This document shows, piece by piece, positions 20,864 to 43,054 of a DNA stretch of 64,000 bases. Source of the DNA: a bacterium (GTDB lineage Bacteria; UBA4055); the NCBI GenBank assembly GCA_029559475.1, contig JAKQBN010000061.1, positions 3,488-67,487 on the forward strand, given 5' to 3'. How positions within the stretch are numbered: the first letter of the stretch is position 1; every line of letters begins with the position of its first letter. The notes under the pieces are model-generated. The model worked only from the letters and a program-made list of their open reading frames with translations, was not told the DNA's origin and ran no database searches. The translations under genes were made by a program, and so were the position numbers.

Positions 20864-20886
20864 AAAAAAAGCGGGATAGACCCGCT
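20864..20886 (-). terminator. Rho-independent terminator downstream of the HesB-like gene
   Basis: Minus-strand RNA forms GCGGG-UCUAU-CCCGC followed by a U-run (plus-strand AAAAAAA at 20864-20870). Confidence 0.5.
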
Positions 20887-20890
20887 AATT

Positions 20891-28833: not shown

Positions 28834-29439
28834 ATGAAAACAGAACATTATGAAGCCCGGTTTGCGGGAGTTGGAGGACAGGGCGTTATCCTTGCGGGAA
28901 AAATACTGGCTTACGGTATGGTAAGTTTTGAGGAATGCAAGGCTATTGAAACACCTACATATACCGCTCAAGTAAGAGGCGGAGCCACGAAAGTTGATGT
29001 CGTAATCGATAAAAAGCATATTGAATATCCCAGATCAGAAAATCTCGATTTTTTTCTCTCGCTCCATCAGAAATCCTTCAATATATATTATAAGGAAATA
29101 AAAAAGGATGCGATAGTCGTCGTAGATCCGAACCTTACGCCTAAAGTTCCATCAGAAATACCGCAGAAGCTTGTCGTCGTGGATCTTGTTGAGATAGCTA
29201 AGAAGACAATGGGTAAAACCCTTTACTCTGCAGTCATCGCTGTAGGACTTTTCGCGGGAATGACCGGGATAATATCTGACAGCCATATACAGCAGGCAGT
29301 TCTTGATAATGCGCCGAAAGGGACCGAGATAGATAACCTGAAGGCTGTCAAGATCGGTCTTGAGCTCGGGAAAAAAGCACTTGCATCGAAAGAGCATGTC
29401 GTCAGGCTCACGATAGAAGACGCGAAAATCACGGAATAA
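28834..29439 (+). CDS. korC: 2-oxoacid:ferredoxin oxidoreductase gamma subunit
   Basis: FAGVGGQGVILAGKILA is a gamma-subunit signature. Confidence 0.8.
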   Translation: MKTEHYEARFAGVGGQGVILAGKILAYGMVSFEECKAIETPTYTAQVRGGATKVDVVIDKKHIEYPRSENLDFFLSLHQKSFNIYYKEIKKDAIVVVDPNLTPKVPSEIPQKLVVVDLVEIAKKTMGKTLYSAVIAVGLFAGMTGIISDSHIQQAVLDNAPKGTEIDNLKAVKIGLELGKKALASKEHVVRLTIEDAKITE

Positions 29440-29448
29440 AATTAATTT

Positions 29449-29474
29449 AAAGCCGCTTTATGCGGCTTTTTTTA
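29449..29474 (+). terminator. Rho-independent terminator after korC
   Basis: AAGCCGC-UUUA-UGCGGCUU followed by a U-run. Confidence 0.55.
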
Positions 29475-29486
29475 ACGGAGGATCTT

Positions 29487-29924
29487 ATGCTCGAACAAAG
29501 CCTTCTTATGGTAAAACCCCATGCTTTTACCGCAAAAAAGACTGGGACAATTATCTCTATGCTTGAAGAAAATAATTTTCAGATCGTCGGTATAAAATCC
29601 ATCAAGCTGACTCCCGAACTGGCGAGAAGATTCTACTTCGTTCATCAGGGGAAAGAGTTCTTTGAAAGGCTGATAAATTATATGAGCACAGGAACAGTCG
29701 CCGCTATCTGCGTAGAAAAAGAGAACTGCGTAGCTGACTTAAGAAAATTTATCGGCGCTACCGACCCCTCAAAAGCTGCCGAGGGCACGATCAGAAAAGC
29801 TGTCGGCGTAACTGTGGAGCAGAACGGCGTTCATGCGTCCGATTCCGTCGATAACGCAAAAAAAGAGATCAGATTTTTCTTCTCGGACATCGAACTTTAT
29901 TCTTACAGATACCTGCAGTATTAG
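29487..29924 (+). CDS. ndk: Nucleoside diphosphate kinase
   Basis: LEQSLLMVKPHAF..., active-site His in NGVHASDS. The start is ATG 29487 with GGAGG RBS; the longer ORF-track start overlaps the terminator. Confidence 0.9.
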   Translation: MLEQSLLMVKPHAFTAKKTGTIISMLEENNFQIVGIKSIKLTPELARRFYFVHQGKEFFERLINYMSTGTVAAICVEKENCVADLRKFIGATDPSKAAEGTIRKAVGVTVEQNGVHASDSVDNAKKEIRFFFSDIELYSYRYLQY

Positions 29925-29933
29925 AGGATAATT

Positions 29934-29999
29934 ATGTCGCAGTTCCACAGGCTGATTTATATTGACAAAATGATAAATAAAGGGTCGTTACAGCTATGA
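29934..29999 (+). CDS. 21-codon upstream ORF (MSQFHRLIYIDKMINKGSLQL) that duplicates the WYL-regulator N-terminus and is translationally coupled (ATGA) to it
   Basis: A strong GAGGA RBS precedes ATG 29934, while the WYL ATG 29996 has no SD and overlaps the uORF stop (CTATGAGAG). The uORF peptide HRLIYIDKMINKGSL parallels ERIVYIDRTIKQKGSI of the downstream protein. Confidence 0.35.
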   Translation: MSQFHRLIYIDKMINKGSLQL

Positions 30000-30964
30000 G
30001 AGAAAAAAGCAAGATCGAGAGAATAGTCTATATCGACAGAACTATTAAGCAGAAAGGTTCAATAACAAAAAAGCAGATAATGGACTGGTCCGGTGCCTGC
30101 GAATCATCAGTTAAGAACGATATAGATTTTTTAAAAAATGAACTGAACGCACCCATTTATTATTCCGGCAAGAAAAAAGGCTACGCATACAAAGAAGATG
30201 TTCCATTCGAACTCTTAACATTTTTAAGCGAAAATATGGTGATCCTTTACGCTCTTTTGAAGGAATTCTTCTCGAACAGGAATTTTATGCCTGTAATAAC
30301 TGACAAGATACTAAAAGGTCTGAAGGATGAACTGCCTTCAGAATATAAAAACATTGATGGCAAGATAAGCTTCAGACTTTCTGAAGCTGAGAATCCTGAG
30401 ATGGATAAATTCGAGATCATTTTCAACTCGATACTAAACGAGACCTGCCTTGAAATTCATTATTCTGACGCTAAAGGCGTGAGTAGTGAGAGGAGTATCG
30501 AACCGCTTCACATTTACCACTATCAGGGGAAATGGTCTGTTTTTTCTTATTGCAAGAAAGCAAGGGATTACAGGGTATTCAACCTTTCGAGAATCACTAA
30601 ACTTGAAACAACTAGTAATAAATTCAGGATTGCTAATCACCCGCAGAACGTAATTGAAAATCACCTTAACGAAGCTTTCGGAGTAGCCAGAGGAAAAGAG
30701 ATCGAACAGGCCGTGATATGGTTCTATGAGCCGACAAGCCATCATGTAACCGATCAGAAGTGGCATCCTGATCAGATAACAGATCATATCACAAGAAAAG
30801 GCAAAAACATCCTGCAGTTTACGCTTCCAGTAGCTAAATACGAGGAGCTTGTCGGAAGAGTTCTGAGGTATGCGCCTGATGCTGAAGTCAGATCGCCAAT
30901 AGATATGCGTAATATGTGGCTAGACAAAATTAAGTCCCTTTCTGAAAAGTATCTGAAAAAATAA
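29996..30964 (+). CDS. WYL-domain transcriptional regulator (HTH-WYL-WCX architecture, BrxR/CapW-like)
   Basis: N-terminal HTH (IERIVYIDRTIKQKGSITKKQIMDWSGACESSVKNDIDFL). WYL-domain core (IEPLHIYHYQGKWSVFSYCKKARDYRVFNLSRI). C-terminal extension. First gene of the accessory island. Confidence 0.7.
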   Translation: MREKSKIERIVYIDRTIKQKGSITKKQIMDWSGACESSVKNDIDFLKNELNAPIYYSGKKKGYAYKEDVPFELLTFLSENMVILYALLKEFFSNRNFMPVITDKILKGLKDELPSEYKNIDGKISFRLSEAENPEMDKFEIIFNSILNETCLEIHYSDAKGVSSERSIEPLHIYHYQGKWSVFSYCKKARDYRVFNLSRITKLETTSNKFRIANHPQNVIENHLNEAFGVARGKEIEQAVIWFYEPTSHHVTDQKWHPDQITDHITRKGKNILQFTLPVAKYEELVGRVLRYAPDAEVRSPIDMRNMWLDKIKSLSEKYLKK

Positions 30965-31165
30965 AGCCTAACTTAATATTTACATAATAAGTCATTATTC
31001 TTGACCCGGTGCACCTGTATATTATTATTTATAGTATCTGTATAGAAAAAATAAAAATTAAGATATGAATGAACCATATACTTTTAATTTTCACAGATCA
31101 GGACAGTTTTTTTACCAGGTTGCATCTGTATCTTGTATTTATGTAATCCGGTATGAGGTGTAATT

Positions 31166-31399
31166 ATGGAAAAGATCAACTGTAAGAAATGCAGCGCAAC
31201 AATAGCTACTCCCGGCTATGCGAGTAGGACTTTTGCAGGAACTTATATGACCTGCTCCCAATGCGGTACTGAACTCAAAAAAGTTTCATATATTCTAAAG
31301 TTAAGTGAAGTTCAGGTCGCATTCGTATGTAAGAAATGCATCGCCATAATCAAAAAAAGGACCGGGCTCAAATGTCCGATATGCGGCACTATAAATTGA
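31166..31399 (+). CDS. Small double zinc-ribbon protein
   Basis: Four CxxC pairs: CKKC...CSQCG and CKKC...CPICG. 77 aa. RBS GAGGTG. Confidence 0.4.
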   Translation: MEKINCKKCSATIATPGYASRTFAGTYMTCSQCGTELKKVSYILKLSEVQVAFVCKKCIAIIKKRTGLKCPICGTIN

Positions 31400-31417
31400 T
31401 ATAAAGAAAATAAGGAG

Positions 31418-31651
31418 GTGAAAATGCAGAATGAAAAAGAAGCGGCTTACTGGAAAGCTGTTCAGAAATGGGCGGAAAAAGCGCAGACGCTTGTGCAGTA
31501 TCAGCAGAAAAACATGAAATGGTTCCTTTCGCCCGAGATAGTTCAGTGGTGCACGCCGAGCTACGAAAGTGAAGTGTCACAGCTTGAAAGAGAGGTCGAA
31601 AGACTCGAAAAAGAAGCTGACAGACTGGAAGTAGAAGCAGGATTAAACTAA
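31418..31651 (+). CDS. Small coiled-coil protein
   Basis: RBS AAGGAGG before the ATG. C-terminal EVSQLEREVERLEKEADRLEVEAG heptads. Confidence 0.35.
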   Translation: MKMQNEKEAAYWKAVQKWAEKAQTLVQYQQKNMKWFLSPEIVQWCTPSYESEVSQLEREVERLEKEADRLEVEAGLN

Positions 31652-31668
31652 ACAAAAAGAGGTGAAAA

Positions 31669-31884
31669 ATGAGCTTAGGGAAAGCTTTGCTTATCGGAGC
31701 TGCGGGGCTCGCGGCGGGATTATTAATAGCCGCATGGGCGGAAACAATGGACAGTGACTCATCAGATACTGATACGGATCTCGATCTTGACGATACCGGA
31801 GATTACACATATATCGGTGATTCGGATGAAACAATCGAAAGTGAGACTGATGAAACTTTGACAGACCAGATTCCGCAGGTATGA
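31669..31884 (+). CDS. Small single-pass membrane protein with a highly acidic Asp/Ser/Thr-rich tail
   Basis: RBS AGAGGTG. A TM helix LLIGAAGLAAGLLIAAWA is followed by DSDSSDTDTDLDLDDTGDYTYIGDSDETIESETDETLTD. Confidence 0.35.
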   Translation: MSLGKALLIGAAGLAAGLLIAAWAETMDSDSSDTDTDLDLDDTGDYTYIGDSDETIESETDETLTDQIPQV

Positions 31885-31908
31885 AAAAGGCGGGTAATTC
31901 CGCCTTTT
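31885..31908 (+). terminator. Rho-independent terminator
   Basis: AGGCGG-GUAAUU-CCGCCU followed by UUUU. Confidence 0.5.
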
Positions 31909-32008
31909 ATCCATGCGATTCTAGCAGACGTTATTATGATTCATGGATATACAATGGTATCATTGGAACTTAGAATCTCAAACTTAAATTAAAAGAAAGG
32001 AAATATTT

Positions 32009-32545
32009 ATGAAAAACGAAATCTATGACAAAACCAGGCTGCAAAGTGCCTTTGACAATCTTGACACTATACTCACGGAGTTAGATGTTAAAGATGAGTG
32101 TAGTAAGTTGTATAGCTTTATCGAATTTAAAGACTATGAAAAAGCCCTCGAAAGAGCCGAACTGATTATCATGAAACTACTGCCTAAATTCTGTACTAAG
32201 GAAGGCGAATTCTGCGAAGTTGATCAGTTTGTTATACTTGATTTTACTTATGCTATGTATGGCAAAGGATATTCTCTGTTCAAGCTCGGTAAATATTCTC
32301 AGGCTTATTTATACTTTAAAGATGTTTTTGACACTCTTCAGGAAAACTGCATTAGGCCTACCGGCGATCTGTTCTATTATATGGCTAAATCAAAACAGCT
32401 TTCAGATGATTTTGGTAAAGCATCGGCATTTTCATCAGGAAAGTTCTCAGGCTTCATGAAGCTTTTAGGACCCGAATTCCCTACCATTCCTGGAAATATG
32501 CGTGAACCAATTAAAAAACTAAAAAAGAAAGGTGATAAAAAATGA
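32009..32545 (+). CDS. Hypothetical protein, paralogous to the 40164 ORF
   Basis: The shared block FKDYEKALERAELIIMKL here matches AKKHYRKALTRAEIILSTL in 40164..40601. Overlaps the next gene (ATGA). Confidence 0.35.
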   Translation: MKNEIYDKTRLQSAFDNLDTILTELDVKDECSKLYSFIEFKDYEKALERAELIIMKLLPKFCTKEGEFCEVDQFVILDFTYAMYGKGYSLFKLGKYSQAYLYFKDVFDTLQENCIRPTGDLFYYMAKSKQLSDDFGKASAFSSGKFSGFMKLLGPEFPTIPGNMREPIKKLKKKGDKK

Positions 32546-33051
32546 TCATTCACGACTATTGCAAAAACTGTCCGTATTATCTAATAAATATGGCCGATAA
32601 GGGCTCACTGTCAAAAGAGGATAACGGTTCGGACACTATACTTGTTTTTCAGTCACCCGGCCGAAAAGAATGGGTAAATAAAAAGCCTTTAAGCTCAGAC
32701 TCTCCCCGTTCATGTAACGGGATCGTGTCGCGTTCCTGGGAAAGAACAGGAAGAAAGCGCGAAGAATTCGATATAACCAATGCGGTTCAATGCTATCCCG
32801 GTCAGGATCAGAAAACCAAACGCGATCTCCCGCCCGATCCCAAAGCCGTAGAACAATGCCTGTACTGCCTAGAGAAAGAAATTCTGTCTAAAAAGTATAA
32901 GATCGTTATTGCCTTCGGGAAAACTGCCGAAAAATCAGTGAACAGGATCGTTGAAAAACATAATCTTGATACTATCGTGATCAATTCTAAGCATCCTGTG
33001 GCAGGCGTAATAAAAAGAGATATTGATAATTTATGGACAAAGAAACAATAA
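32542..33051 (+). CDS. Uracil-DNA glycosylase superfamily protein (family-4-like layout) with divergent active-site motif
   Basis: N-terminal CKNCPYY, then ILVFQSPGRKE at the motif-A position (GEAPG in family 4), ITNAVQCYPG at the family-4 VKCRPP position, and a C-terminal KIVIAFGKTA. Confidence 0.45.
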   Translation: MIIHDYCKNCPYYLINMADKGSLSKEDNGSDTILVFQSPGRKEWVNKKPLSSDSPRSCNGIVSRSWERTGRKREEFDITNAVQCYPGQDQKTKRDLPPDPKAVEQCLYCLEKEILSKKYKIVIAFGKTAEKSVNRIVEKHNLDTIVINSKHPVAGVIKRDIDNLWTKKQ

Positions 33052-33785
33052 AAGGGGAATTTATGGATACTCTCTTAAGCGGTATTGATACAATAGACAG
33101 CGGACTGGAAGGATTTTCATTAGGAGAAATGGTTATCTCCGCTTCCAGGCCCGGGCATGGCAATATCTACCTTCTGTTGTCGATCGTGAGGGGAATTTAT
33201 TACGACTTCATTGATAGGTACAAATGCCTGGTTTTCTCGAACTCTGAAAAAAGCAGGCTAAAACCTTTACAGCCCGGAGATGAAGATATATTTATTTACT
33301 ATAAGTTCCAGAGCGATTCATTAACGGGTTTTTTCTCCGAACTTGAAGATCAGATTAAACTAAACGATACGAAGATCTTGATTATCGACTACAATGAAAC
33401 CAGTTTTCAGAAGAATAAGAACTTCTTCATCGGTCTTAAAAATATAGCAGTTAGAAAAAATATTCTTATCTTCATTAAATCGTATTTGACGCGGCAGTCC
33501 GCACGAAAATCGTGGTTCAATCCTCAGATAGCAGATATTGAGGGAGCACCAGTAGTTGAAAAGATCGCGGATAAGTATATAATCATGCACCGTCTTGATG
33601 TTCTCGGTATCAAGGATGCTTCCGGGCGTGATCAGACAAATATCGTCGATATCAGGCTCTGTGCAAGAGATCTGTGCCATACAGGCTCTAAGTACATTTA
33701 TTTCAACAGCGACAAGAATATTTTCGAAAATTTCACTCCGCTTCATAACAGATACGGGTACTACTATCTTTACAGTGAAAACTAA
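33033..33785 (+). CDS. DnaB-C-terminal-like (RecA-fold) protein with a degenerate Walker A
   Basis: VISASRPGHGNIYLLLSIV aligns with DnaB IIAARPSMGKTAFALN (K to N, T to I). ILIIDYNETSF matches the DnaB lvvIDYLQ block, LKNIAVRKNILIFIKSYLTRQ matches the LK-LAkEl-vPV block, and ADIEGAPVVEKIADKYIIMHR matches the SDLRESGAIEQDADvV-flyR block. No N-terminal helicase domain. Confidence 0.4.
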   Translation: MDKETIKGEFMDTLLSGIDTIDSGLEGFSLGEMVISASRPGHGNIYLLLSIVRGIYYDFIDRYKCLVFSNSEKSRLKPLQPGDEDIFIYYKFQSDSLTGFFSELEDQIKLNDTKILIIDYNETSFQKNKNFFIGLKNIAVRKNILIFIKSYLTRQSARKSWFNPQIADIEGAPVVEKIADKYIIMHRLDVLGIKDASGRDQTNIVDIRLCARDLCHTGSKYIYFNSDKNIFENFTPLHNRYGYYYLYSEN

Positions 33786-33817
33786 GACAGCAAAATAAAT
33801 AATTTAAGGGAGAATTT

Positions 33818-34165
33818 ATGACTATCCATTATTCAAAGCAAATTTACAGCGAATTAGCCACTATCAAAGCTGAATTTGACAGGATTGCTGAAAATTTATA
33901 CAAAATAAAAAAGAAGTATTATGCAATAAATTTCGACATCTCTGAGAATGAAAAGCTCGAAGAGGAGATATTCAAAAACGAGTGCGCCCTGGAAGCTCTC
34001 GAAGACACCGATGAAGAAATTTTATCAAAGATCCGTAATAAGATCGCAGGATTACAGAAAAGAATAGAAGATAATAAAAACCAAGATACGATACTGAAAA
34101 GCATTGATGATATTTTCTTGGATATTGATCAGAAAATTCAGATTCTGGATCACCAGATCGATTGA
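33818..34165 (+). CDS. Small coiled-coil protein
   Basis: RBS AAGGGAG. Heptad-rich sequence, 115 aa. Confidence 0.3.
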   Translation: MTIHYSKQIYSELATIKAEFDRIAENLYKIKKKYYAINFDISENEKLEEEIFKNECALEALEDTDEEILSKIRNKIAGLQKRIEDNKNQDTILKSIDDIFLDIDQKIQILDHQID

Positions 34166-34239
34166 GCATGACCCGTTCATTGAAATAGAATCAGACCTTT
34201 TACTGAAAACTCACTAAATTTTAATTAAACGGAGTAATT

Positions 34240-34455
34240 ATGAAAAACAACCATAAAATCAGCTTCATAAAGCCTGTACCTTATGCAGTGCCTGACTTAA
34301 GATTCTGCAATATATATTGCTTTAAAGAAATTATCATGCCTGATGACCGGATTGGCAATATCGGTGATTCATGGACATATTGTGTAATCGATTCGCAGGA
34401 AATATTTTATAATCCTTTATGTAAATCAAACGGAGACTATAGCTATGAATGCTGA
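34240..34455 (+). CDS. Hypothetical small protein
   Basis: RBS ACGGAG. 71 aa. Overlaps the next ORF. Confidence 0.25.
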   Translation: MKNNHKISFIKPVPYAVPDLRFCNIYCFKEIIMPDDRIGNIGDSWTYCVIDSQEIFYNPLCKSNGDYSYEC

Positions 34456-34861
34456 AAAAGAAATTACAGATAAGATTTTTTTTAAAAATCCCAGAACCGG
34501 AGAAACTCAGACTGTAGGCAGTAACTTAAACATCATATTTGGAGTGTTTTCCGTAATGTGCGGAATACCATTATTTATCAGAAGGCTTAACTCATGGGGA
34601 TATGTTATGCTAGCTTTACAAAGCGTGTATATGCTCCTATACCCTCAGTTCAGAGAAGGCGATTATTGCTCGATCTTTTTTTTACTTTTCGTTGAAATCA
34701 TAATCAGCTTATATTTAGGCATCAAAGGTAACAGGCTCCTTACGATCTATTACTTTGAGAACGGGTGGATTATGGAAAATCCTCATAATGAAATGGTCCG
34801 GAACACATTCAAAAAATGGAAACTTGAACCTGAAGTAATCCCTCGCAAGGGAGTCAAATGA
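34445..34861 (+). CDS. Hypothetical membrane protein
   Basis: Hydrophobic segments (IIFGVFSVMCGIPLFI, CSIFFLLFVEIIISLYLGI). Confidence 0.3.
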   Translation: MNAEKEITDKIFFKNPRTGETQTVGSNLNIIFGVFSVMCGIPLFIRRLNSWGYVMLALQSVYMLLYPQFREGDYCSIFFLLFVEIIISLYLGIKGNRLLTIYYFENGWIMENPHNEMVRNTFKKWKLEPEVIPRKGVK

Positions 34862-34885
34862 AAAACAGAAAAGAACAAATTTCTA

Positions 34886-35278
34886 TGCTACAAATGTAAT
34901 GGCAACGAAACAAGGCTACACAACCTGCGATCTGTCGGTATCGGAGGTCATACCGACAGGCAGGACTGTGTGAATTGCGATAATTACACAACTATTCTCA
35001 ACTGCGCAGAGCGCGAATTATTCGAAGAGATCTCACTCAGAATCGATAAGAACAGACTCAAATTCATCGGGATCATCAACGACGATAAAACCGAAGTAGG
35101 CTCAGTACACTTCGGAGCCGTTTTCTTATACAAACTCGATGATATTGAAAAAATAAAAAACACTACCGAAATCGAATCATACCAATGGCTGAGCATGAAA
35201 GAGATTGACGGTACAGATAATCTTGAAGAATGGAGCAGAATAGCTATGATCCTGTATAAAGATTTTTTCCTAAAATGA
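34886..35278 (+). CDS. Nudix-box-containing fragment (possible gene remnant)
   Basis: An in-frame ATG at 34886 gives MYKCNGNETRLHNLRSVGIGGHTD...ILNCAERELFEEISL. RELFEEIS matches the Nudix REUxEExGU core but the Gx5E spacing is disrupted. The ORF-track version starts at GTG 34970. Confidence 0.3.
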   Translation, partial: CYKCNGNETRLHNLRSVGIGGHTDRQDCVNCDNYTTILNCAERELFEEISLRIDKNRLKFIGIINDDKTEVGSVHFGAVFLYKLDDIEKIKNTTEIESYQWLSMKEIDGTDNLEEWSRIAMILYKDFFLK

Positions 35279-35348
35279 AAATTATTCAGCTTGACTTTAC
35301 CTCCCGGAAAATTGCATATTTACACAACCTGAATCGAGAGGTAAAAGG

Positions 35349-36278
35349 ATGGCGATTGTTAATGTTGAATATTGTGGTAATGTAATAATTCCTTCTTTGG
35401 ATATCGAAATTACCAACCAGCACATCATAAATGCAACGGAGTTTAATTTAAATATTTTTAAACGACAAGGCATTACTTTTACTGGAACTGGGCAAAATAT
35501 TTCACAAGTTGATATTGATTTTGATCCGAGTAAAAATGCCGTTCCAGATGTATGGAGGTATACAATAAAAATTGATAAAAAAAGATGTTTATCACTCGTA
35601 AAATCAAAAGTAGGTTACAGAACATGCCACGTTGAAGCATGTAAGAACTTCCTCAATAACAAAAATTTTCCTCAAGATGTAGATATTGCAAAATGCATTT
35701 CAAATGCAAAATGCAAATTTTATAAAAAATACCCAGTTATCCTTCTCCTTCTCGAATCTCCTCATAAAAATGAGTATACTAATGCTTTCATTCAAATCGC
35801 ACCAGCGCAAAAAAGTACAGGAAAATGCATAGAGAGTAATATAATAAGTCTAATAGAAGAAATAAATAAGCGCATAAATCCTCAATTACCCATAAATACA
35901 AACTACAAGCTGATAATAGCAAATCCTATACCGTTTCAAACTTCATTACACATTTTAAAAAATAAAGATTCAGGATTTGATGATAACCAAAGAAAGTTAA
36001 GAGATAGAATTTGGAAATCACTCTGGCATCAAAATAGCTTAAGATACAATTTTCTAAATCGTCTGAACAACGATTACAAGCCCGATCTTGTTATAAATGC
36101 CTGTACAGAAAATCTGCAACCTTTGGTTTCCTGTTGCATAATTTGCGGAACTTGCTATCCTTTAGTTGAAACCAAACACCCAGCTAATCATTGGAATAAA
36201 TATACAAAAAATAATAAAAGCAAATTCACTCCTGCGGAAATTCTGAAACTTAGATTTGGAATAGAAGTGATCAGATAA
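35349..36278 (+). CDS. Hypothetical Cys-rich protein
   Basis: 309 aa. RBS GAGAGGTAAAAGG. The C-terminus has CCIICGTCYP. Confidence 0.3.
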   Translation: MAIVNVEYCGNVIIPSLDIEITNQHIINATEFNLNIFKRQGITFTGTGQNISQVDIDFDPSKNAVPDVWRYTIKIDKKRCLSLVKSKVGYRTCHVEACKNFLNNKNFPQDVDIAKCISNAKCKFYKKYPVILLLLESPHKNEYTNAFIQIAPAQKSTGKCIESNIISLIEEINKRINPQLPINTNYKLIIANPIPFQTSLHILKNKDSGFDDNQRKLRDRIWKSLWHQNSLRYNFLNRLNNDYKPDLVINACTENLQPLVSCCIICGTCYPLVETKHPANHWNKYTKNNKSKFTPAEILKLRFGIEVIR

Positions 36279-36371
36279 TTCATTTCTCTATCATAACTCC
36301 TAATTTTTCTTTGACTTAAACCCTCATTCTTTGTAAATTCAGGTTATATTTTATAAAGGATCAACCCACAG

Positions 36372-38777
36372 ATGAGTTTATATGAAAAATTACAAAAAGC
36401 TACAAGCGAAGAAGATGTTAAAGACGCATATATCAAAGCTCTGGGATTAAAAAACTACTCGAAAAATCTGATTGACCTGCAAACAAAAGAAATCTGGTTT
36501 GAAGCAAAAGATACGAAAAGAAATTCAACGTACGCTATGTTCACACAATTGATGCATTATGTTCAGGCCGCTTTGAACAAAGGCGAATATATTCCGCCAT
36601 TTTTGGCAGTAATTGATACCGAAAAAGCAGCGATAATGAAAAGCTCGGATGTTATACCTTTCTTAGCAAAGAAAACAATAAAATGGGGTAAATCTGCGAG
36701 CCAGTACACACAAGAAGCGCTTGATGAAATCTCAACACATATCGGTACTCATTTTGTTTCGTTTAAAATATCTACGCATGAAGAAGAATTTATTAGCACT
36801 GTAAAAGAAGCTATAAAATCAGGCGATATAATCAGGACTAATATCACTCCTGATAACCTCAAGCAGGTATTTGATAAATGGGTATCTATGATAGGCAGGG
36901 AAATAAAAGAAGTCGATGAGAAAGATTATGCTTTGCTATTCTACGCGGATATTATGCACGATGGGGTAATGGCAACTCATAGTAATTTAACTGCTCAACT
37001 GCTACATAAAAACGACGCCCCGGTATTTAGCTTAAATGGGCACTTATACGAGCTTGGAAACAAGGAAGGTTACCGTCAGTTTTGGGCAATTTACCAAAAG
37101 CCACCTAAAGAGGAATACCGGAATTATTTACTTGAGAGGCGCGATAGTTTGATTCCTCTTGACGAGAGAGTATATAAAGGCGGCTATTACACACCTTTGA
37201 ATGTCGTAGATAAGGCTTACGATAAACTTACTGAAACATTAGGCAAGAACTGGCAGAAAGATTACATAGTTTGGGATATGTGTTGCGGGGTAGGAAATTT
37301 AGAGGTTAAGCATAGTAATCATCGAAATATTTTTATGTCAACATTGGATATGGCCGATGTTGATATTATGCAAGCTACAAAAACCTGCGTGGCAGCCCAG
37401 CGTTTTCAATATGATTATTTAAACGACGATATCACAGATAATGGACAAATTGATTATACCCTCACAAATAAAGTACCTTCAAGTTTACTGAAAGCTATAA
37501 AGGAAGAAAAAAAGATTTTAGTGTTGATTAATCCTCCCTATGCTGAATCAACAAGTTCAGATAATATTAATACAGGAGGGGCTTCAGACTCAAGTAAGAC
37601 TGGCATTGCAAAAACAAAGCTAGCACAATCAGCTATGAGTGAGTATGGTAAAGCAAGTAATGAACTCTTTACTCAGTTTGTTGTCAGAATAGCTAAAGAA
37701 ATGCCTAATGCAACTTTAGCTATGTTTAGCACTATGAAGTATGTCAATTCTCAAACATTAGAAATATTTCGTTCTGTTTGGAATGCAAAATATTTGGATG
37801 GTTTCGTTGTACATAGCAAAACCTTTGATGGGTTGAAAGGCGATTTTCCAATTGGATTCTTAATATGGAAAACGGATCAAAAATCAAAAACCAAACAACC
37901 CATAGTAGAAATATCCACTGAAGTGTTAGACAGACATGTCAATCCCATTGGTGAAAAATGCTTTTACAATATTTCTAACGATTTACTTCTAACTAATTGG
38001 ATAAAACGTCCCAAAACAAATGAAACAGAAGTTATCCCATTAAAAAATGCAATTACTCCTGCAACCGCGAATAAAGATTTAAGAGGAACTAAGTGGTCTA
38101 AAGATGCTCTTGCGTTTTGTTGGTGTAATGGTAATGATGTACAACAAGCTTCACGAACCGCATTATTCTCTTCTGGTTTCAATGGTGGTCATGGATTATT
38201 TGTTAATCCTGAAAATCTCTGGCAAGTCGCAATAATGTTTTCAGTTCGTCAATTAGTTAAACACACATGGGTTAATCATAATGACCAGTTTTTAATACCA
38301 ACAGAGCCATTATCTTATGAGTTTAAAACCGATTGTTTAATTTTCATGTTGTTTCATGGTAAAAATCTTTCAGCAAGTGCAAATGATCTAAAATGGAATG
38401 ATAAAAAGTGGTCAATAGTAAATCATTTCATCCCCTTTACTGAAGTAGAAGTAAATTCGCCAGGCCGTTTTGAATCGGACTTTATGGTTCAGTACCTGGC
38501 TGATAAAGAGCTTTCTCCTGAAGCTAAAACAGTTTTAGATGGGGGAAGAAAATTATGGCAAAGCTATTTTTCTGAGACTGATGTTAGATCTGTACGAGAT
38601 AAATACTGTCTTAACAGAACTGATGTCGGCTGGTATCAGGTTCGTAAAGCACTTGAAGAGAGAAATGCCAGCGGAGATTTCATTCCGGTTAGTTTCAAAC
38701 CCTTAGAAGAAGCATATAAGAACTTAACCGATAAGCTGAACCCGCAAGTTTATGAGCTTGGGTTCTTGCGTAAATAA
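36372..38777 (+). CDS. MmeI-like Type IIL/IIG restriction-modification protein (N-terminal PD-ExK nuclease + gamma-class N6-adenine methyltransferase + C-terminal target-recognition region)
   Basis: The N-terminus IDLQTKEIWFEAKDT...AMFTQLMHYVQAALNKGEYIPPFLAVIDTEKAAI parallels the MmeI catalytic region VDLFWPGILLIEMK...AYDQALDYF...LPRYVLVCDFQRFRL (D-x8/9-E-x-K). MTase motif I VWDMCCGVGNL. Motif IV VLINPPYAES. Confidence 0.6.
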   Translation: MSLYEKLQKATSEEDVKDAYIKALGLKNYSKNLIDLQTKEIWFEAKDTKRNSTYAMFTQLMHYVQAALNKGEYIPPFLAVIDTEKAAIMKSSDVIPFLAKKTIKWGKSASQYTQEALDEISTHIGTHFVSFKISTHEEEFISTVKEAIKSGDIIRTNITPDNLKQVFDKWVSMIGREIKEVDEKDYALLFYADIMHDGVMATHSNLTAQLLHKNDAPVFSLNGHLYELGNKEGYRQFWAIYQKPPKEEYRNYLLERRDSLIPLDERVYKGGYYTPLNVVDKAYDKLTETLGKNWQKDYIVWDMCCGVGNLEVKHSNHRNIFMSTLDMADVDIMQATKTCVAAQRFQYDYLNDDITDNGQIDYTLTNKVPSSLLKAIKEEKKILVLINPPYAESTSSDNINTGGASDSSKTGIAKTKLAQSAMSEYGKASNELFTQFVVRIAKEMPNATLAMFSTMKYVNSQTLEIFRSVWNAKYLDGFVVHSKTFDGLKGDFPIGFLIWKTDQKSKTKQPIVEISTEVLDRHVNPIGEKCFYNISNDLLLTNWIKRPKTNETEVIPLKNAITPATANKDLRGTKWSKDALAFCWCNGNDVQQASRTALFSSGFNGGHGLFVNPENLWQVAIMFSVRQLVKHTWVNHNDQFLIPTEPLSYEFKTDCLIFMLFHGKNLSASANDLKWNDKKWSIVNHFIPFTEVEVNSPGRFESDFMVQYLADKELSPEAKTVLDGGRKLWQSYFSETDVRSVRDKYCLNRTDVGWYQVRKALEERNASGDFIPVSFKPLEEAYKNLTDKLNPQVYELGFLRK

Positions 38778-38798
38778 ATATAAATCTTTCTCTGGAGG

Positions 38799-39839
38799 AT
38801 GTTAATGTCTGATAACAATATACCTGAAAACAATAATAATAGTTTGGAAAATATTGCCAAAGATTACACTGAAAAAATGCTTTCTAAATCGATAAGTAAT
38901 ATTAATTTAGACTCTTTGAAAGGTAATTCCGATAAGATAAAAGAAATTAAAGATAAAATATCATTTCATTCAATACATAGCGAACCGGTTCTTATCACAG
39001 GTGCAAGTGGTACAGGTAAAAGGCTCGTGGCTCATCTGATTCATAGCAACAGTATCTATAAAGAAAAGCCATACAAAGAAATAAACTGTCTGCTTTTTTC
39101 TAACGATAGGTTTAATTTTGACGAACTTATAGATCTTCCTAATGGTGGCACTATCTATATTAGTAATACTCATCAACTGCCTTTGCAAGCTCAATTAAAT
39201 ATAATATATCTACTTTACGACGACTTTAAGAATGAAAAGCCCTCGATACCTAAAGTACGGTTTATCTTTAGTGCAGAGAGTAATCTCATTGAATATGTAG
39301 ATAAAGGCAGCCTCCAGAAAAGCTTCTTTGATCTTATAAGTAACTTTGAAATTAAAACACCAAGTTTATACGAGATCAAAGACGATATTAAGATATTAGC
39401 TGAAAGCTTAGTTGACAAACTAAACCAAAAGTATTTAAAGCAAATTGTGTTACGTTCTGATGCCTATGCTGTTCTAAAAAATCAATTATACATGAATAAT
39501 GTACATGACTTAAAGAATGTTTTGATAAAATCTTTTATTCACGCTATGTACGAAGATAATGAAATAATCATGGCTGGGGATATAAAGAAGCATTTTGAAC
39601 CTTACATAATCAAATGCATAGACGAAATACTCGTACCGATACCAATGCCTGAAAATAAGTCTCTTTCATCATACCTTGAAGAGATTAAGATCAAAATTTA
39701 TGAATCTGCTTTGAACCATACTTCAAAGACTTTAGGCAAAAAGAGCCAGAAAAAAGCTAGTGAGTTTCTAAATGAAGATCAATCAACAATATCCAGGTTA
39801 GAAAATAAAAGAAAAACCAAATTTCTTAAATCACTATAA
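38799..39839 (+). CDS. Degenerate sigma-54-activator-like AAA+ domain protein with C-terminal HTH (catalytic motifs and GAFTGA loop absent)
   Basis: PVLITGASGTGKRLVAHLIHSNS and PYKEINC match the bEBP Walker A/NC region. Walker B is replaced (GGTIYISNT versus GTLFLDEI). No GAFTGA. The arginine-finger region is FFDL instead of FReDL. The C-terminus TLGKKSQKKASEFLNEDQSTISRL is Fis-type HTH-like. Confidence 0.5.
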   Translation: MLMSDNNIPENNNNSLENIAKDYTEKMLSKSISNINLDSLKGNSDKIKEIKDKISFHSIHSEPVLITGASGTGKRLVAHLIHSNSIYKEKPYKEINCLLFSNDRFNFDELIDLPNGGTIYISNTHQLPLQAQLNIIYLLYDDFKNEKPSIPKVRFIFSAESNLIEYVDKGSLQKSFFDLISNFEIKTPSLYEIKDDIKILAESLVDKLNQKYLKQIVLRSDAYAVLKNQLYMNNVHDLKNVLIKSFIHAMYEDNEIIMAGDIKKHFEPYIIKCIDEILVPIPMPENKSLSSYLEEIKIKIYESALNHTSKTLGKKSQKKASEFLNEDQSTISRLENKRKTKFLKSL

Positions 39840-39865
39840 TAATTTTTCACTTACATCAATTATAT

Positions 39866-39891
39866 ATTATTAATATATATATATTAATAAT
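39866..39891. repeat. Perfect 26-bp AT-only palindrome ATTATTAATATATATATATTAATAAT
   Basis: Exact reverse-complement symmetry. It sits in a 320-bp AT-rich intergenic spacer inside the island. Confidence 0.6.
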
Positions 39892-40102
39892 TGAAGAACT
39901 ATATCGTCTTCATTCCATTGCAAACTTATGAATATTTAAAGTACTGCCCATTACAGAATCAAAAAAATGTTTATCTATTACTTAGGCACAATTAAGTATT
40001 ATATCAATTCGTATATTATTTTTTAATTATTACTTACAGCATTATTTCATATTCGAATATTTATAGCTATTATACATAAATTTTCATAATCGATTTTTTT
40101 AC

Positions 40103-40131
40103 TTGACAAAGGTTTTTTTTTATTTTATAAT
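40103..40131 (+). promoter_or_regulatory. Consensus sigma70 promoter TTGACA-N17-TATAAT
   Basis: TTGACA 40103-40108 and TATAAT 40126-40131, about 30 nt upstream of the 40164 ORF. Confidence 0.5.
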
Positions 40132-40163
40132 TCGGGAGAAGTTAAAATAAAAAAAGGATCAGG

Positions 40164-40601
40164 ATGACTTGTAAAAACAACGAAATAGACACCGAAATGG
40201 TGCAAGACGCAGAACTTGAAGCACAAAAGGAAATAGAGTATGCGATAGCCGATAAAGCTGTAAGCGAACTCTTCAAATCAATAGCTAAGAAACACTACAG
40301 AAAAGCTCTTACAAGAGCAGAAATAATTTTAAGCACCCTAAATGATTCCGTAACTCCCAGAGTTTTCACGGATAAAGAAGAATTTTATGTTAGATACTCA
40401 ACTTATATCAGGGCATATTGCCACCTGATGGTTCACAATTATAAAATGGCCTTAACGGGTTATAATGATTTACTAAGATTTAATGAAAGCACTAATGCTG
40501 TAACACCAGATTTTGTAATCACTGAGCTCAAAGAAGCTCAGAATAAATCAGAAAAGATGGTCCAACCGAGACAGAAGCAACAATTAAAAAACCAGAGGTA
40601 A
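40164..40601 (+). CDS. Hypothetical protein (paralog of 32009 ORF), first gene of cassette A
   Basis: RBS AAAAGGA. Shared motif KHYRKALTRAEIIL. Confidence 0.35.
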   Translation: MTCKNNEIDTEMVQDAELEAQKEIEYAIADKAVSELFKSIAKKHYRKALTRAEIILSTLNDSVTPRVFTDKEEFYVRYSTYIRAYCHLMVHNYKMALTGYNDLLRFNESTNAVTPDFVITELKEAQNKSEKMVQPRQKQQLKNQR

Positions 40602-40604
40602 AAA

Positions 40605-40844
40605 ATGAGAAGGCGAAAGAATAATAAACAGCATCTTTATTACAATGGTGTATGTAATTCTCAAAAGAAGAATCCTTATGAATTCGAATACAATTTCACA
40701 TATAATAAAGATAGAACAGCTGTGAAAAGGTACGCATTTAATTCTGGGAACAAGGTGGTTAACGAAACGTTCCAGGAATGTATGGGGTGGTTGAATCTTG
40801 CGAAAGAGGGAATAGATGTTGTGTTTTGCTTGTTAGGAGGATAG
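40605..40844 (+). CDS. Small basic protein with Arg-rich N-terminus (cassette A partner)
   Basis: MRRRKNNKQ...YNFTYNKDRTAVKRYAFNSGNKVVNETFQECMGWLNLAKEGIDVVF. Paralogous to the 41374 ORF. Confidence 0.35.
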   Translation: MRRRKNNKQHLYYNGVCNSQKKNPYEFEYNFTYNKDRTAVKRYAFNSGNKVVNETFQECMGWLNLAKEGIDVVFCLLGG

Positions 40845-40916
40845 CTTTGACTTATAACCTGATATCTAATTCTAACTAAACTTAAAAGCCCAAAAATAAA
40901 AATATAAGGAGCAATT

Positions 40917-41381
40917 ATGAAACAGAAAGATCTTTACGGACAACCAATAACATGTGAAAACAATAGTAGTGATACGCTTATAATGCTTGATATGCCTGAT
41001 AAAAAGTCTCGTACTTCTCATAATTTAATCAGTATGCTTGAAAAATCCTGGGTGCGGGCAGCCTTAAGCATGAAGGATTTCGATCTCTTCTTTGCTTCAA
41101 ACTGCAGTCATCAGGAAGACGAAATCAATATTGGGTTGCCCATCGAAAAGTATGCTTACGATCATTATATTGAACTGCTTAAGAAGAACATCGTCAAAAA
41201 AGGGATTAAGTATAAACGGGTCATTGCACTGGGTGATTTCTCAGAGAAAGTCGCATGGGACATATCAGACGAAATTGCAGAAAAGGACTCAAAAATCGTT
41301 TTCCTACAGATACCATTAAATAATGTTTACGATGAGGATCTGGATAGAATCTGGACCGAAGAGGAGGGCAAAAATGATTAG
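40917..41381 (+). CDS. Hypothetical protein, first gene of cassette B
   Basis: RBS TAAGGAG. 154 aa, acidic C-terminus. Overlaps the next ORF (ATGATTAG). Confidence 0.3.
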   Translation: MKQKDLYGQPITCENNSSDTLIMLDMPDKKSRTSHNLISMLEKSWVRAALSMKDFDLFFASNCSHQEDEINIGLPIEKYAYDHYIELLKKNIVKKGIKYKRVIALGDFSEKVAWDISDEIAEKDSKIVFLQIPLNNVYDEDLDRIWTEEEGKND

Positions 41382-41571
41382 AAGAATTAAAAGAATAAGG
41401 AGATCGAAAAGATTCAAGTATAATTTTGAACTAGGAACGAACCCTATGGTAAAAAGAACATACCGTTATTCTTCAGGTAACGATACGGTCGATGATATCT
41501 TCCACGAGAGTGTAGCTTGTTTGAACACTGTCAAAGAAGTCATCGATATTTTTTTTGATTTCATTACGTAA
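41374..41571 (+). CDS. Small basic protein with Arg-rich N-terminus (cassette B partner)
   Basis: MIRRIKRIRRSKRFKYNFELGTNPMVKRTYRYSSGNDTVDDIFHESVACLNTVKEVIDIFF aligns with the 40605 ORF along its length. Confidence 0.35.
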   Translation: MIRRIKRIRRSKRFKYNFELGTNPMVKRTYRYSSGNDTVDDIFHESVACLNTVKEVIDIFFDFIT

Positions 41572-41619
41572 TCACAGTAATCTAACTACAAGGCGAACAT
41601 GCCTGTAAATATTAACATT

Positions 41620-41649
41620 GGCCAGCAATATCAAAGCTGGCCTTTTTTT
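41620..41649 (+). terminator. Rho-independent terminator ending the island's plus-strand block
   Basis: GGCCAGC-AAUAUCAAA-GCUGGCC followed by UUUUUUU. Confidence 0.55.
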
Positions 41650-41729
41650 ATCCTTTTCTTTTGATGTAGTCTAAGTTATTATTAAATTCGGCATAAAAAC
41701 ATTACAGATACAATACGGATATATTTGAT

Positions 41730-41879
41730 CTATTTTTTAGGTTCTTCTTCGTGCGGAAGCAGTTTGTCTATAGCCACGATCAGAAAGAAAAAAATGAACA
41801 TGAATAAAAATAATGCCGTCATTCCTTTGAAGGATATGTCAATGGCCTGTGAATAAACCGATACTATTTCATTTGTCAT
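41730..41879 (-). CDS. Small single-TM protein downstream of the decarboxylase beta subunit (possible small decarboxylase subunit)
   Basis: 49 aa, MTNEIVSVYSQAIDISFKGMTALFLFMFIFFFLIVAIDKLLPHEEEPKK. Begins 11 nt after the upstream gene. Below the ORF-track size cutoff. Confidence 0.3.
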   Translation of the reverse strand: MTNEIVSVYSQAIDISFKGMTALFLFMFIFFFLIVAIDKLLPHEEEPKK

Positions 41880-41889
41880 AATTTTCTCC

Positions 41890-43023
41890 TTAGTGTACCA
41901 ACGCTAAGATTAGTCCGCCCGCAAGAACCGATCCGATCTGGCCGGATACATTCGCACTGACTGCATGCATTAAAAGATAATTTGTGGGATCTTCTTTGAG
42001 ACCCATCGTATGAATTACCCTGGACGACATCGGGAAAGCCGAAATTCCTGCCGCGCCTATCATAGGATTGACTTTCTTTTTTAAGAAGAAGTTTAGAAGC
42101 TTGGCAAAAAGTACGCCGCCCGCCGTATCGAACATAAAAGCTATCAGTCCAAGACCGATTATAAAAAGTGTTGAGACCTGAAGAAATCTGTCCGCGGTCA
42201 TCGTTGATGCTATAGTGATACCGAGAAGAAGAGTAACGAGGCTGGCAAGTTCATTCTGGGCAGCGAGTGAAAGTTTGTTGAGCACGCCGCATTCCCTTAC
42301 GAGGTTTCCGAACATCAGAAATCCTATCAGCGCGACTGCAGTGGGAGCAAATAAACCGGTCAGAATTGTAACCAGTATCGGGAACAGAACGAGAGTAGCT
42401 CTCGATATTTTTCTATCGTTCCCTCCTCCGTCCATTCTCATCATCCGTTCTTCTTTTGTGGTGAGCATTTTAATAATAGGCGGCTGAATTATAGGTACTA
42501 ACGCCATATATGAATAAGCCGCTACTGATATCGGGCCAAGAAGATTTGGGGCAAATCTTGTCGCTACATAGATCGAAGTCGGGCCGTCTGCTGAGCCGAT
42601 CACCCCTATTGAAGCAGCTTCCTTTATATCGAATCCGAGAAGTGTTGCAAGGATCATTGTGAAAAATATTCCGAACTGCGCAGCTGCGCCAAATAAAAGA
42701 AGCTTGGGATTTCTGAAAAGAGGGCTGAAATCTATCATAGCGCCTATTGCTACAAATATCAGCAGCGGGAATATCTCCGTTAAAATTCCGACCCTGAAAA
42801 ATATCGAAAGTGCTCCTTCAACGACATGACCGCCTTCGACCTGATCAAGTACTGAAGTATATGGTATATTAGCGAGAATAGCTCCGAAACCTATTGGCAG
42901 AAGCAAAGTGGGCTCGTAATTTTTCTTAACGGCAAGAAAGATAAGTGTTCCGCCGATCATCATCATGACGAGCATCTGCCATGTCATTGATGTAAGCCCT
43001 ACCATTAAACCTTCCATGCACAC
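41890..43023 (-). CDS. Na+-translocating decarboxylase beta subunit (OadB/MmdB/GcdB family)
   Basis: N-terminus ...LAVKKNYEPTLLLPIGFGAILANIP and the multi-TM profile match the oxaloacetate/methylmalonyl-CoA/glutaconyl-CoA decarboxylase beta family. GTG start. Confidence 0.7.
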   Translation of the reverse strand: MCMEGLMVGLTSMTWQMLVMMMIGGTLIFLAVKKNYEPTLLLPIGFGAILANIPYTSVLDQVEGGHVVEGALSIFFRVGILTEIFPLLIFVAIGAMIDFSPLFRNPKLLLFGAAAQFGIFFTMILATLLGFDIKEAASIGVIGSADGPTSIYVATRFAPNLLGPISVAAYSYMALVPIIQPPIIKMLTTKEERMMRMDGGGNDRKISRATLVLFPILVTILTGLFAPTAVALIGFLMFGNLVRECGVLNKLSLAAQNELASLVTLLLGITIASTMTADRFLQVSTLFIIGLGLIAFMFDTAGGVLFAKLLNFFLKKKVNPMIGAAGISAFPMSSRVIHTMGLKEDPTNYLLMHAVSANVSGQIGSVLAGGLILALVH

Positions 43024-43054
43024 CTCTATATTAAAAACGAACTTAAATTAAAAA

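Follow-up and report, generated by a model that had tools for sequence, protein, structure and literature searches.

A mosaic island at a variable, probable phage-defence site behind korABC-ndk in Candidatus Delongbacteria

What is the 11.77-kb block that separates ndk from a decarboxylase gene in the window, by which we mean the whole 64,000-nucleotide stretch of contig JAKQBN010000061.1 that was analysed? Working from the letters, the original prediction had taken this block for a single accessory island headed by a WYL-domain regulator, defence-like but belonging to no named system. We find instead a mosaic, in which a backbone inherited within a clade of Candidatus Delongbacteria is combined with cargo of foreign composition. 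The interval is probably the local content of a chromosomal phage-defence hotspot that lies just 3' of korABC-ndk in this clade.

We begin by considering whether the block is an insertion. On its 5' side lie korA, korB, korC and then ndk (29460-29924; Pfam NDK, 3.6e-46), and on its 3' side the convergent gene oadB for the beta subunit of the decarboxylase OAD (41890-43023; 4.5e-151), tRNA-Leu(cag) (43054-43139) and ftsK. Between them are 18 open reading frames (ORFs) of 71-801 amino acids (aa), all on the + strand (29996-41571), with an additional ORF of 21 codons at 29934-29999; the - strand of the interval has no ORF of comparable length. In a related genome (L016; the loci compared here are referred to by L numbers), ndk and oadB are 93% and 98% identical to those of the window and are separated by only 35 bp. 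The blastn alignment of the window to L016 breaks off after 29931 and restarts at 41703, with these 35 bp intervening in L016 and 11.77 kb in the window, and the insert is therefore delimited as follows, together with the signal that closes it.

29932-41702, + strand: the complete insert, delimited against the empty ndk-oadB site in L016 (blastn junctions; GC 0.354 versus 0.43-0.44).
41620-41649, + strand: intrinsic-terminator-like hairpin closing the + strand block (GGCCAGC, a 9-nt loop, GCTGGCC, then TTTTTTT).

The layout given by the original prediction is thus reproduced, with all ORFs on the + strand, ndk upstream and the convergent decarboxylase gene and tRNA-Leu downstream, and the accessory character that it proposed is borne out by the empty site. 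The predicted extent (29934-41650) was right at its start, but the insert ends at 41702, about 50 bp past the terminator. As had been noted, the block is richer in AT than its surroundings (GC 35.4%, compared to 43.2% and 43.8% in the two neighbouring 10-kb segments) and has a strong terminator at 41620-41649, where the hairpin and its seven T are present; our consensus scan missed this hairpin solely because the loop limit of the scan was 8 nt. The predicted lack of an integrase or recombinase is confirmed, since no such domain is found in any island ORF by Pfam, NCBIfam, PADLOC and PHROG scans. No terminal direct repeats or att-like sites are found flanking the island, and the tRNA-Leu gene lies 1.35 kb past the right junction, so that the junction is not at the tRNA. 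All six contigs with an identical KorC (6/6) carry the same island; they are the same strain or species, recovered from several samples.

The next question is what occupies the same site in related genomes. The related loci were gathered by a KorB scan with one genome per species, which also placed the host in Candidatus Delongbacteria. In L016, oadB and then ftsK come straight after ndk, in L031 ftsK does so, and in more distant genomes lolC/D are found. In other relatives the site is filled. A type III-D CRISPR effector gene set (Cas10d 1.1e-133, Cas7_IIId 1.4e-61, Cas5_IIId 2.3e-59) lies 3' of the backbone in L048; a HerA/mad8-like ATPase (5.8e-22) with unannotated paralogues takes this place in L045; and L040 has EcsC, which is PDC-S29 (7.8e-90), with two LRAT-domain proteins. 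In L012, ndk is followed by an RHH/PIN pair, a DUF4143 ATPase and a WYL remnant, and PIN toxin-antitoxin pairs occur in L012, L039, L040 and L045. At least five different cargo sets are known for the ndk site. It is a defence hotspot whose gene content is variable between loci, as had been suspected of the ndk-to-decarboxylase interval. The strongest support for the defence-like reading, which was also that of the original prediction, comes from here, because these sister loci carry III-D, HerA/mad8-like, EcsC/PDC-S29 and PIN genes behind the same WYL gene.

Some of the sister loci have features of their own. In L048, which is of the same species as L013, the III-D set (6793-9310) is compact, with a Cas10d of 492 aa, and lies directly 3' of the WYL/DnaB_C-like backbone; no CRISPR array is seen within the 9.3 kb of sequence of this locus. 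In L045, the segment 8424-11967 has three tandem paralogues (366, 403 and 406 aa; GC 0.29-0.33) with no Pfam or PADLOC match, and these are followed by uncharacterised proteins of 544 aa and 285 aa and then by the HerA/mad8-like ATPase; this segment may be an undescribed system at the same hotspot. At the insert itself, the right junction coincides at 41703-41727 with the motif ACAGATACAATACGGATAT, of which there is a single copy in the empty site (L016 3968-3992) and two tandem-like copies after ndk in L014, followed there by yet another gene. The motif may serve recombination or regulation where the oad operon has its 3' end.

Given that the site is variable, is the content found in the window one unit? 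Its left part, from the WYL gene to the DnaB_C-like gene plus a 138-aa hydrophobic protein (29996-34861), is a backbone that is found in at least nine other Delongbacteria loci, most commonly in the order WYL, zinc ribbon, acidic coiled coil, CC77, TM-acidic (hydrophobic, predicted transmembrane (TM), N-terminus with an acidic tail) and DnaB_C-like. The backbone features of the window, with the short ORF that precedes them, are the following.

29934-29999, + strand: 21-codon scar of another WYL allele, MSQFHRLIYIDKMINKGSLQL and a stop codon; its translation matches the WYL N-termini of L013 and L015, MSQFHRLIYIDRMI, and it overlaps the start of the present WYL gene.
29996-30964, + strand: WYL plus WCX regulator, 322 aa (Pfam WYL 1.3e-14, WCX 1.3e-7).
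31166-31399, + strand: double zinc-ribbon protein, 77 aa (four CxxC pairs; weak zinc-ribbon Pfam matches).
31418-31651, + strand: coiled-coil protein CC77, 77 aa (no family match).
31669-31884, + strand: TM-acidic protein, 71 aa (called from its sequence).
33033-33785, + strand: DnaB C-terminal-domain pseudo-ATPase, 250 aa, the constant partner of the WYL gene (Pfam DnaB_C 5.6e-9).
33818-34165, + strand: acidic coiled-coil protein, 115 aa (likeness by eye to proteins of sister loci).
34240-34861, + strand: two overlapping genes, for a 71-aa protein and for the 138-aa hydrophobic (predicted membrane) protein (ORFs; no family match).

The GC content at third codon positions (GC3) separates the two parts of the block. 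It is 0.40-0.49 in most backbone genes, close to the 0.41-0.50 of the flanks, and 0.25-0.30 in the genes for a 309-aa protein, an 801-aa protein and an AAA+ protein further to the right. Because there are two GC3 classes, and because the backbone is syntenic, the left 5 kb is taken as a lineage-specific, position-conserved module and the right part as foreign. The island is a mosaic of an inherited backbone and cargo of foreign composition, not one unit, and the picture of a single island of one unmapped system has to be given up. The pattern that had been set against accessory status, with the same genes at the same position and in normal composition in relatives, is found for the left 5 kb only. 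In the right part, the two genes examined for their wider distribution occur elsewhere without other island genes, the 801-aa gene in every locus inspected and the 309-aa family in prophage-like contigs.

How was the backbone assembled at this site? The allele type of the scar at 29934-29999 is the one found in L013, L015, L040 and L047. In turn, the present WYL protein of the window shares 70-71% identity with its counterparts in L039 and L045, two loci with an ndk of only 72-77% identity, and 49-50% with those in L040 and L047, where the identity of ndk is 89%. The scar and this incongruence of WYL identity with ndk identity argue for recombination at the locus, and by its sequence the 21-codon ORF looks like the scar of an allelic replacement by recombination.

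We turn our attention to the regulator that opens the block. Both of its domains score above their Pfam cut-offs (WYL 54.4 bits against 21.8, WCX 32.3 bits against 23.9), and the PADLOC WYL model covers residues 6-303 (3.5e-31). A putative N-terminal winged helix-turn-helix gives no Pfam HTH match, and the alignment of the PADLOC WYL model starts at residue 6. The nearest solved WYL domains are those of PafBC (6.8e-10), BrxR (7qfz, 4.6e-9) and CapW (7tb5, 1e-5). The pattern of a WYL regulator heading a mosaic defence island is established (PMC9122601), and CapW is a sensor of single-stranded DNA (ssDNA) (PMC11662680). The regulator of the window resembles BrxR and CapW in its WYL plus WCX architecture, in being the first gene of a one-direction block and in having locus-variable defence genes on its 3' side. 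It differs from them in that the alignment is limited to the WYL domain, with PafBC scoring slightly higher; in its host, which is Delongbacteria here, whereas BrxR homologues were 97% proteobacterial in a survey (PMC9122601); and in its constant partner, a dead DnaB C-terminal domain, for which no counterpart is described for BrxR or CapW. No convincing operator palindromes are found in the intergenic regions between the WYL and zinc-ribbon genes or between the AAA+ gene and the second cassette.

The small partners of the regulator are conserved to different degrees. CC77 is the most conserved member of the backbone, with 75-80% identity in L013, L040 and L046-L049, compared to about 50% for WYL. 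The zinc-ribbon protein is 65-70% identical in L013, L047 and L048, the TM-acidic protein has homologues of 55-59% identity in L013, L040 and L047, and the 138-aa hydrophobic protein is 48% identical to the product of the L045 gene directly after the DnaB_C-like gene. By eye, the product of 33818-34165 resembles the acidic coiled coils (113-116 aa) of L013, L040 and L047; those sit between the zinc-ribbon and CC77 genes, and that of the window sits after DnaB_C. Because tblastn of this product against the sister acidic coiled coils gives no significant match, homology between them is not established.

The constant partner of the WYL gene is the DnaB_C-like protein. Its family profile matches DnaB (4nmn, 1.8e-17), and there is clear homology to the C-terminal RecA-like domain of replicative DnaB on both sides of the fold. 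Unlike replicative DnaB, however, it has no N-terminal domain or linker. In all 5 members the Walker A sequence ARPGMGKT has become SRPGHGN (GKT to GHGN) and DLRESG has become DIEGxP, and because these replace the canonical motifs the proteins are left without the P-loop lysine and the arginine-finger motif. Judged by these motifs, the protein cannot be a helicase in the usual sense. A further difference from replicative DnaB is its distribution, in one clade and always beside a WYL gene. Word-indexed and alignment-based metagenome searches find the family at 10 loci, counting the window, in Delongbacteria only, and every one of them has the arrangement korABC-ndk-(PIN toxin-antitoxin)-WYL-...-DnaB_C-like. 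The metagenome scan with a single DnaB_C-like sequence had returned none, and the later query with an alignment gave 5 loci. An AlphaFold2 model from 4 sequences (predicted local distance difference test, pLDDT, 46) is unusable.

The remaining features of the block are cargo, some of it lying inside the backbone.

32009-32545, + strand: TPR-like protein, 178 aa (weak TPR_1 match, 9.5e-4; 4-bp overlap with the next gene, UDG-A).
32542-33051, + strand: UDG-A, a divergent family-4-type protein of the uracil-DNA glycosylase (UDG) superfamily, 169 aa (Pfam UDG 1.3e-11, 45.2 bits, cut-off 24.3).
34970-35278, + strand: 5'-truncated Nudix fragment, 102 aa, GTG start (Pfam NUDIX positions 43-125 of 134).
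35349-36278, + strand: protein of the 'ESPH' family, 309 aa (no family model; GC3 0.245).
36372-38777, + strand: single-chain nuclease-methyltransferase-target recognition domain (TRD) protein, 801 aa, Type IIL/ISP-like (motifs and fold).
38799-39839, + strand: degenerate AAA+ protein with a weak HTH, 346 aa (Sigma54_activ_2 2.2e-16, AAA_lid_14 3.9e-8).
40103-40131, + strand: sigma-70 consensus site TTGACA-17-TATAAT, 5' of the second cassette (12/12 in the scan; a consensus match only).
40164-41571, + strand: degenerate second cassette of a TPR-like protein (145 aa), a small protein (79 aa), a UDG-like protein (154 aa) and another small protein (82 aa) (paralogy).

The domain calls made originally (WYL, UDG superfamily, a DnaB_C dead in Walker A, sigma54-like AAA+ and Nudix) are all recovered with Pfam, NCBIfam, PADLOC and PHROG models. 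The MmeI-like call for the 801-aa protein stands for its architecture, fold and motifs and fails in that there is no match to the MmeI Pfam model.

We consider this 801-aa protein in some detail. No model of Pfam (MmeI_*, N6_Mtase, Eco57I), NCBIfam or PHROGs matches it, and against the PDB sequences phmmer returns nothing and the family profile returns chance matches only. The family is nevertheless large, with more than 5000 homologue clusters at 90% identity, and its closest members share 73-79% identity across phyla. The best 120 homologues, an identical copy aside, are 72-81% identical, and the names among these 120 include Bacteroidales, Methylococcales, Mucilaginibacter, Alkanindiges and others. 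Across 23 sequences there is no variation in D35, E44-x-K46, the DMCCGVGN stretch of motif I or NPPY. The protein has an N6-adenine methyltransferase of the gamma class, with motif I preceding NPPY, and a TRD is fused to it at the C-terminal side; within the family the TRD is less conserved (69%) than the nuclease domain (81%). In an AlphaFold2 model (pLDDT 72), D35 sits at the start of beta 2 and ExK lies where beta 3 ends, and the closest folds to the model are DrdV, LlaBIII and MmeI.

How far does the likeness to these enzymes go? The 801-aa chain follows the Type IIL/ISP plan, with an N-terminal PD-ExK domain, a helical linker, a gamma methyltransferase and a C-terminal TRD, and its gene has no companion methylase or constant neighbours. 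However, a sequence relationship to MmeI, DrdV or LlaBIII is not detectable, the helicase domain of Type ISP is lacking, and the protein is shorter than DrdV chains (about 1015 residues) and than MmeI (919 aa). The MmeI family of Type IIL and Type ISP are single-chain restriction-modification (R-M) enzymes, for example MmeI, DrdV and LlaBIII (PMC2731913, PMC4833311). The description of the MmeI family gives a PD-ExK domain at the N-terminus, a helical arm, a methyltransferase of the gamma class and a TRD, with no constant neighbours, and D70, E80 and K82 of MmeI are placed as in the 801-aa model (PMC2731913). By sequence, the 801-aa protein is not of the MmeI family; at the level of fold and motifs, its reading as an autonomous single-chain Type IIL-like R-M enzyme holds.

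The gene is autonomous in its distribution as well, since none of the other loci inspected has a second island gene. In Mucilaginibacter it lies in an integrase/relaxase element, and in Alkanindiges and one more genome its neighbourhood is of housekeeping type; it is also found in a Methylococcales locus, in two IMG/VR contigs, in a plasmid-like contig with Rep3/ParA and on 10-kb plasmids from Acinetobacter and Fluviibacter. A search of 50,697 phage records gives no match to the protein. A co-transferred block of the 309-aa, 801-aa and AAA+ genes was considered and rejected, as it has similar GC3 in its favour only and the neighbourhoods of five checkable homologues (73-79% identity) give it no support. 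In the Methylococcales locus (L002), an ordinary Pfam-UDG gene (13078-13719) lies two genes 3' of the 801-aa homologue. A link of this gene to the UDG-like genes of the island was likewise rejected; the proximity is probably coincidental, because tblastn gives no similarity to either of the island UDG-like proteins.

The second part of the cargo to be considered is the TPR-like/UDG-A pair, which is not found in the sister backbones and is an insertion inside the backbone. The UDG-A family (alignment A2) is small and has the conserved motifs CxxCPY, FQSPG, FDITNAVQCY and HPS. Motif A is FQSPG throughout the family, against GE(A/G)PG in family 4, and motif B is HPS in most members and HPV in the window protein. 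In A2 the CxxC, the QC(Y/F) and a further cysteine downstream are conserved, and the positions of the four putative 4Fe-4S cysteines are kept in most members. Among solved structures, the family-4 UDG of S. tokodaii comes closest (4zbx, 4.3e-6). The UDG-superfamily protein Brig1 is an anti-phage DNA glycosylase, with 4zby as its closest structural match (PMC11078745), and 4zbx and 4zby are structures of the same protein. UDG-A thus resembles Brig1 and the family-4 UDGs as a small, stand-alone protein of the superfamily, in a defence-island context and with the S. tokodaii UDG as its nearest solved relative; for Brig1, this shared nearest structure and the context are the sole link. It differs from them in the FQSPG motif A, in a TIGR00758 score far under the cut-off (35.8 against 125.3) and in its coupling to a TPR-like gene.

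The duplicated small-gene cassettes that had been predicted are confirmed by three paralogies: 32009 with 40164 (7e-5), 32542 with 40917 (5e-15) and 40605 with 41323 (8e-10). The second TPR-like copy is 40164-40601, and the second UDG copy (40917-41381) has lost CxxC, FQSPG, QCY and HPS altogether. The second cassette is preceded by a 325-bp AT-rich gap, which contains the sigma-70 consensus at 40103-40131 and a 26-bp AT palindrome at 39866-39891. Counts of promoter and terminator consensus matches show no excess over shuffled controls.

UDG-A homologues also occur in L041, near SNF2, PLD-like and AAA genes and a WYL gene; none is found in viral contigs. In L043 (1-1626) and in the ERZ1426830 contig, the UDG-A homologue follows a 1001-aa TPR protein, in which a CHAT protease domain is apparent by eye from the sequence, and an ECF sigma factor lies upstream. 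An ESPH homologue sits beside the UDG-A gene of L043 and is convergent to it. These contexts suggest a recurrent association of TPR, UDG-A and ESPH proteins.

What, then, is the 309-aa ESPH protein? It has no Pfam, NCBIfam, PADLOC or PHROG match, and it represents an unannotated family of 702 clusters at 50% identity. The invariant residues include E136, S137, P138, H139, N250, T253, H277 and P278, in patterns such as ESPH..E and HP..W. Six prophage-like contigs of IMG/VR have lone copies, surrounded by genes for head, portal or replication functions. Against PDB sequences the family profile gives chance matches only. A weak hhalign match connects the ESPH (A6) and UDG-A (A2) alignments (18% probability, E 0.0013, 72 columns), aligning LLESPH with FQSPG and NPIxxQT with TNAVQC, and HPSxW is C-terminal in ESPH. 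The colinear motifs hint at a UDG-like fold, and the family may belong to the UDG superfamily, possibly as a new branch.

Two further cargo genes appear to have lost their original activity. The C-terminal part of the AAA+ protein matches the PADLOC model RtcR_PspF2 CARF_AAA_HTH (1.4e-29), and its HTH_3 match (0.017) is under the Pfam cut-off. In an alignment to PspF, Walker A is kept, the GAFTGA loop is deleted, Walker B DE has become SN, and the arginine fingers and the sensor II arginine are lost. The protein shares the AAA+ core, the lid and a weak C-terminal HTH match with sigma-54 enhancer-binding proteins and with CARF-AAA-HTH (RtcR-like) proteins; it differs from them in having no GAFTGA, no acidic Walker B pair, no arginine fingers, no CARF and no receiver domain, and in scoring far under all NCBIfam cut-offs. 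With these motifs gone, it may be a non-ATPase regulator with putative DNA binding. The Nudix ORF, for its part, matches only positions 136-230 of the 238 in phrog_8902.

Combining this information, a working model of the locus in two layers can be proposed. The first layer would be the lineage-specific backbone, with the WYL-WCX transcription factor and the inactive DnaB C-terminal-domain protein as its core and, in most loci, a zinc ribbon, two coiled coils and the protein with a hydrophobic N-terminus and acidic tail in addition; it would be inherited, and exchanged by homologous recombination, within the clade. The second layer would be the genome-variable cargo, here the TPR/UDG pair, the Nudix remnant, ESPH, the 801-aa R-M protein, the inactive AAA+ protein and the decayed second cassette. 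By analogy with CapW and BrxR, the WYL protein would repress the + strand operon until a signal of the DNA-damage or ssDNA type arrives (PMC9122601, PMC11662680). The 801-aa enzyme would methylate one strand of its site with its NPPY domain and cut unmodified incoming DNA with its N-terminal PD-ExK domain, and the UDG-like proteins would excise non-canonical bases from phage DNA, as Brig1 does.

Several observations weigh against reading the locus as phage defence. The strong PADLOC matches are to the WYL and AAA+-HTH regulators only, with no complete named system, and those of the 801-aa protein are weak matches to Type II methyltransferases (2.9e-4). Operator repeats at 30950-31170 are AT-rich ones at chance level only, and the approximately 70 bp 5' of the WYL gene were not searched. 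The glycosylase activity of UDG-A is not assured, because FQSPG replaces GE(A/G)PG; parts of the island are not under selection, because the second cassette and the Nudix gene are decayed; and the backbone, being syntenic and compositionally native, could be lineage-specific housekeeping rather than defence. The last point leads to a rival in which the locus is a DNA-damage or repair regulon under a WYL activator of the PafBC/DriD type, with the UDG-like, Nudix and DnaB_C-like proteins beside ndk sanitising nucleotides and repairing DNA, and with the R-M gene as a passenger. Of the solved structures, PafBC is indeed the nearest to the WYL domain (6.8e-10), the backbone keeps its position and has native GC3, and UDG, NUDIX and DnaB_C are classical folds of DNA metabolism. 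Yet the Nudix gene is a 5'-truncated fragment, the DnaB-like protein is without the Walker A lysine and the arginine-finger motif, UDG-A is without the family-4 catalytic motif and not in the sister backbones, the locus is dispensable according to L016 and L031, and the sister loci have CRISPR III-D, HerA-like and toxin-antitoxin genes instead, all of which makes this rival improbable.

A second rival, likewise unlikely, sees in the block an integrative mobile element in decay, for example a phage satellite or what is left of a prophage, from which the integrase has gone. An AT-rich, one-direction block with many small acidic, coiled-coil and zinc-ribbon ORFs has that appearance, the WYL and Nudix genes match PHROG families, the ESPH family is found in prophage-like IMG/VR contigs, and the block contains gene remnants. 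However, no integrase, recombinase, replication initiator, structural or packaging gene is found, there are no flanking direct repeats, the junction is away from the tRNA, the 801-aa protein is unmatched in the phage records, and the left third is syntenic across the clade with host-like GC3. That the roughly 18 genes form one new multi-component defence system with WYL as its dedicated sensor is very improbable. The shared strand, the short or overlapping intergenic spaces and the one strong terminator would fit it, but outside this strain the genes are not found together, the inspected loci have the 801-aa gene by itself, UDG-A is present in other contexts, other loci combine the backbone with entirely different cargo, and there are two GC3 classes and an internal perfect promoter consensus at 40103; the co-occurrence data have already largely refuted it. 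A joint reading, which we regard as doubtful, makes the WYL-WCX regulator and the dead DnaB_C, with their small partners, a new infection sensor, and separately makes the TPR-like/UDG-A and ESPH proteins a new glycosylase-type defence. In such a sensor the DnaB decoy may detect ssDNA at stalled forks, or proteins with which a phage loads or hijacks the replicative helicase of its host, and may signal to the WYL repressor, so that the downstream defence cargo is switched on.

A few observations elsewhere in the window complete the description. A low-GC stretch (0.35-0.37) on the - strand at 18139-20804 adjoins tRNA-Leu(caa) (20861-20955). It encodes an AAA_14/DUF4143 ATPase and a 462-aa protein without a Pfam match, and a similar DUF4143 ATPase is found in the ndk island of L012; the stretch is possibly another accessory insert of small size. 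From 29000 to 43500, an Rfam scan finds tRNA only, and no CRISPR-like spaced repeats are found across the whole window.

We return to the reading of the interval as the local content of a phage-defence hotspot and to what it means. A WYL-headed mosaic defence island is a known category; what is new is this particular hotspot, the partnership with a DnaB pseudoenzyme, and two families that are large and have no models. The 801-aa family is common and yet without a Pfam, NCBIfam or PHROG model and weakly matched by PADLOC, and it is therefore a probable R-M type that annotation pipelines miss. A hotspot in an uncultured candidate phylum with an exact empty-site reference is useful for mining new systems, and a DnaB pseudoenzyme strictly paired with a WYL regulator could bear on how WYL regulators sense infection.

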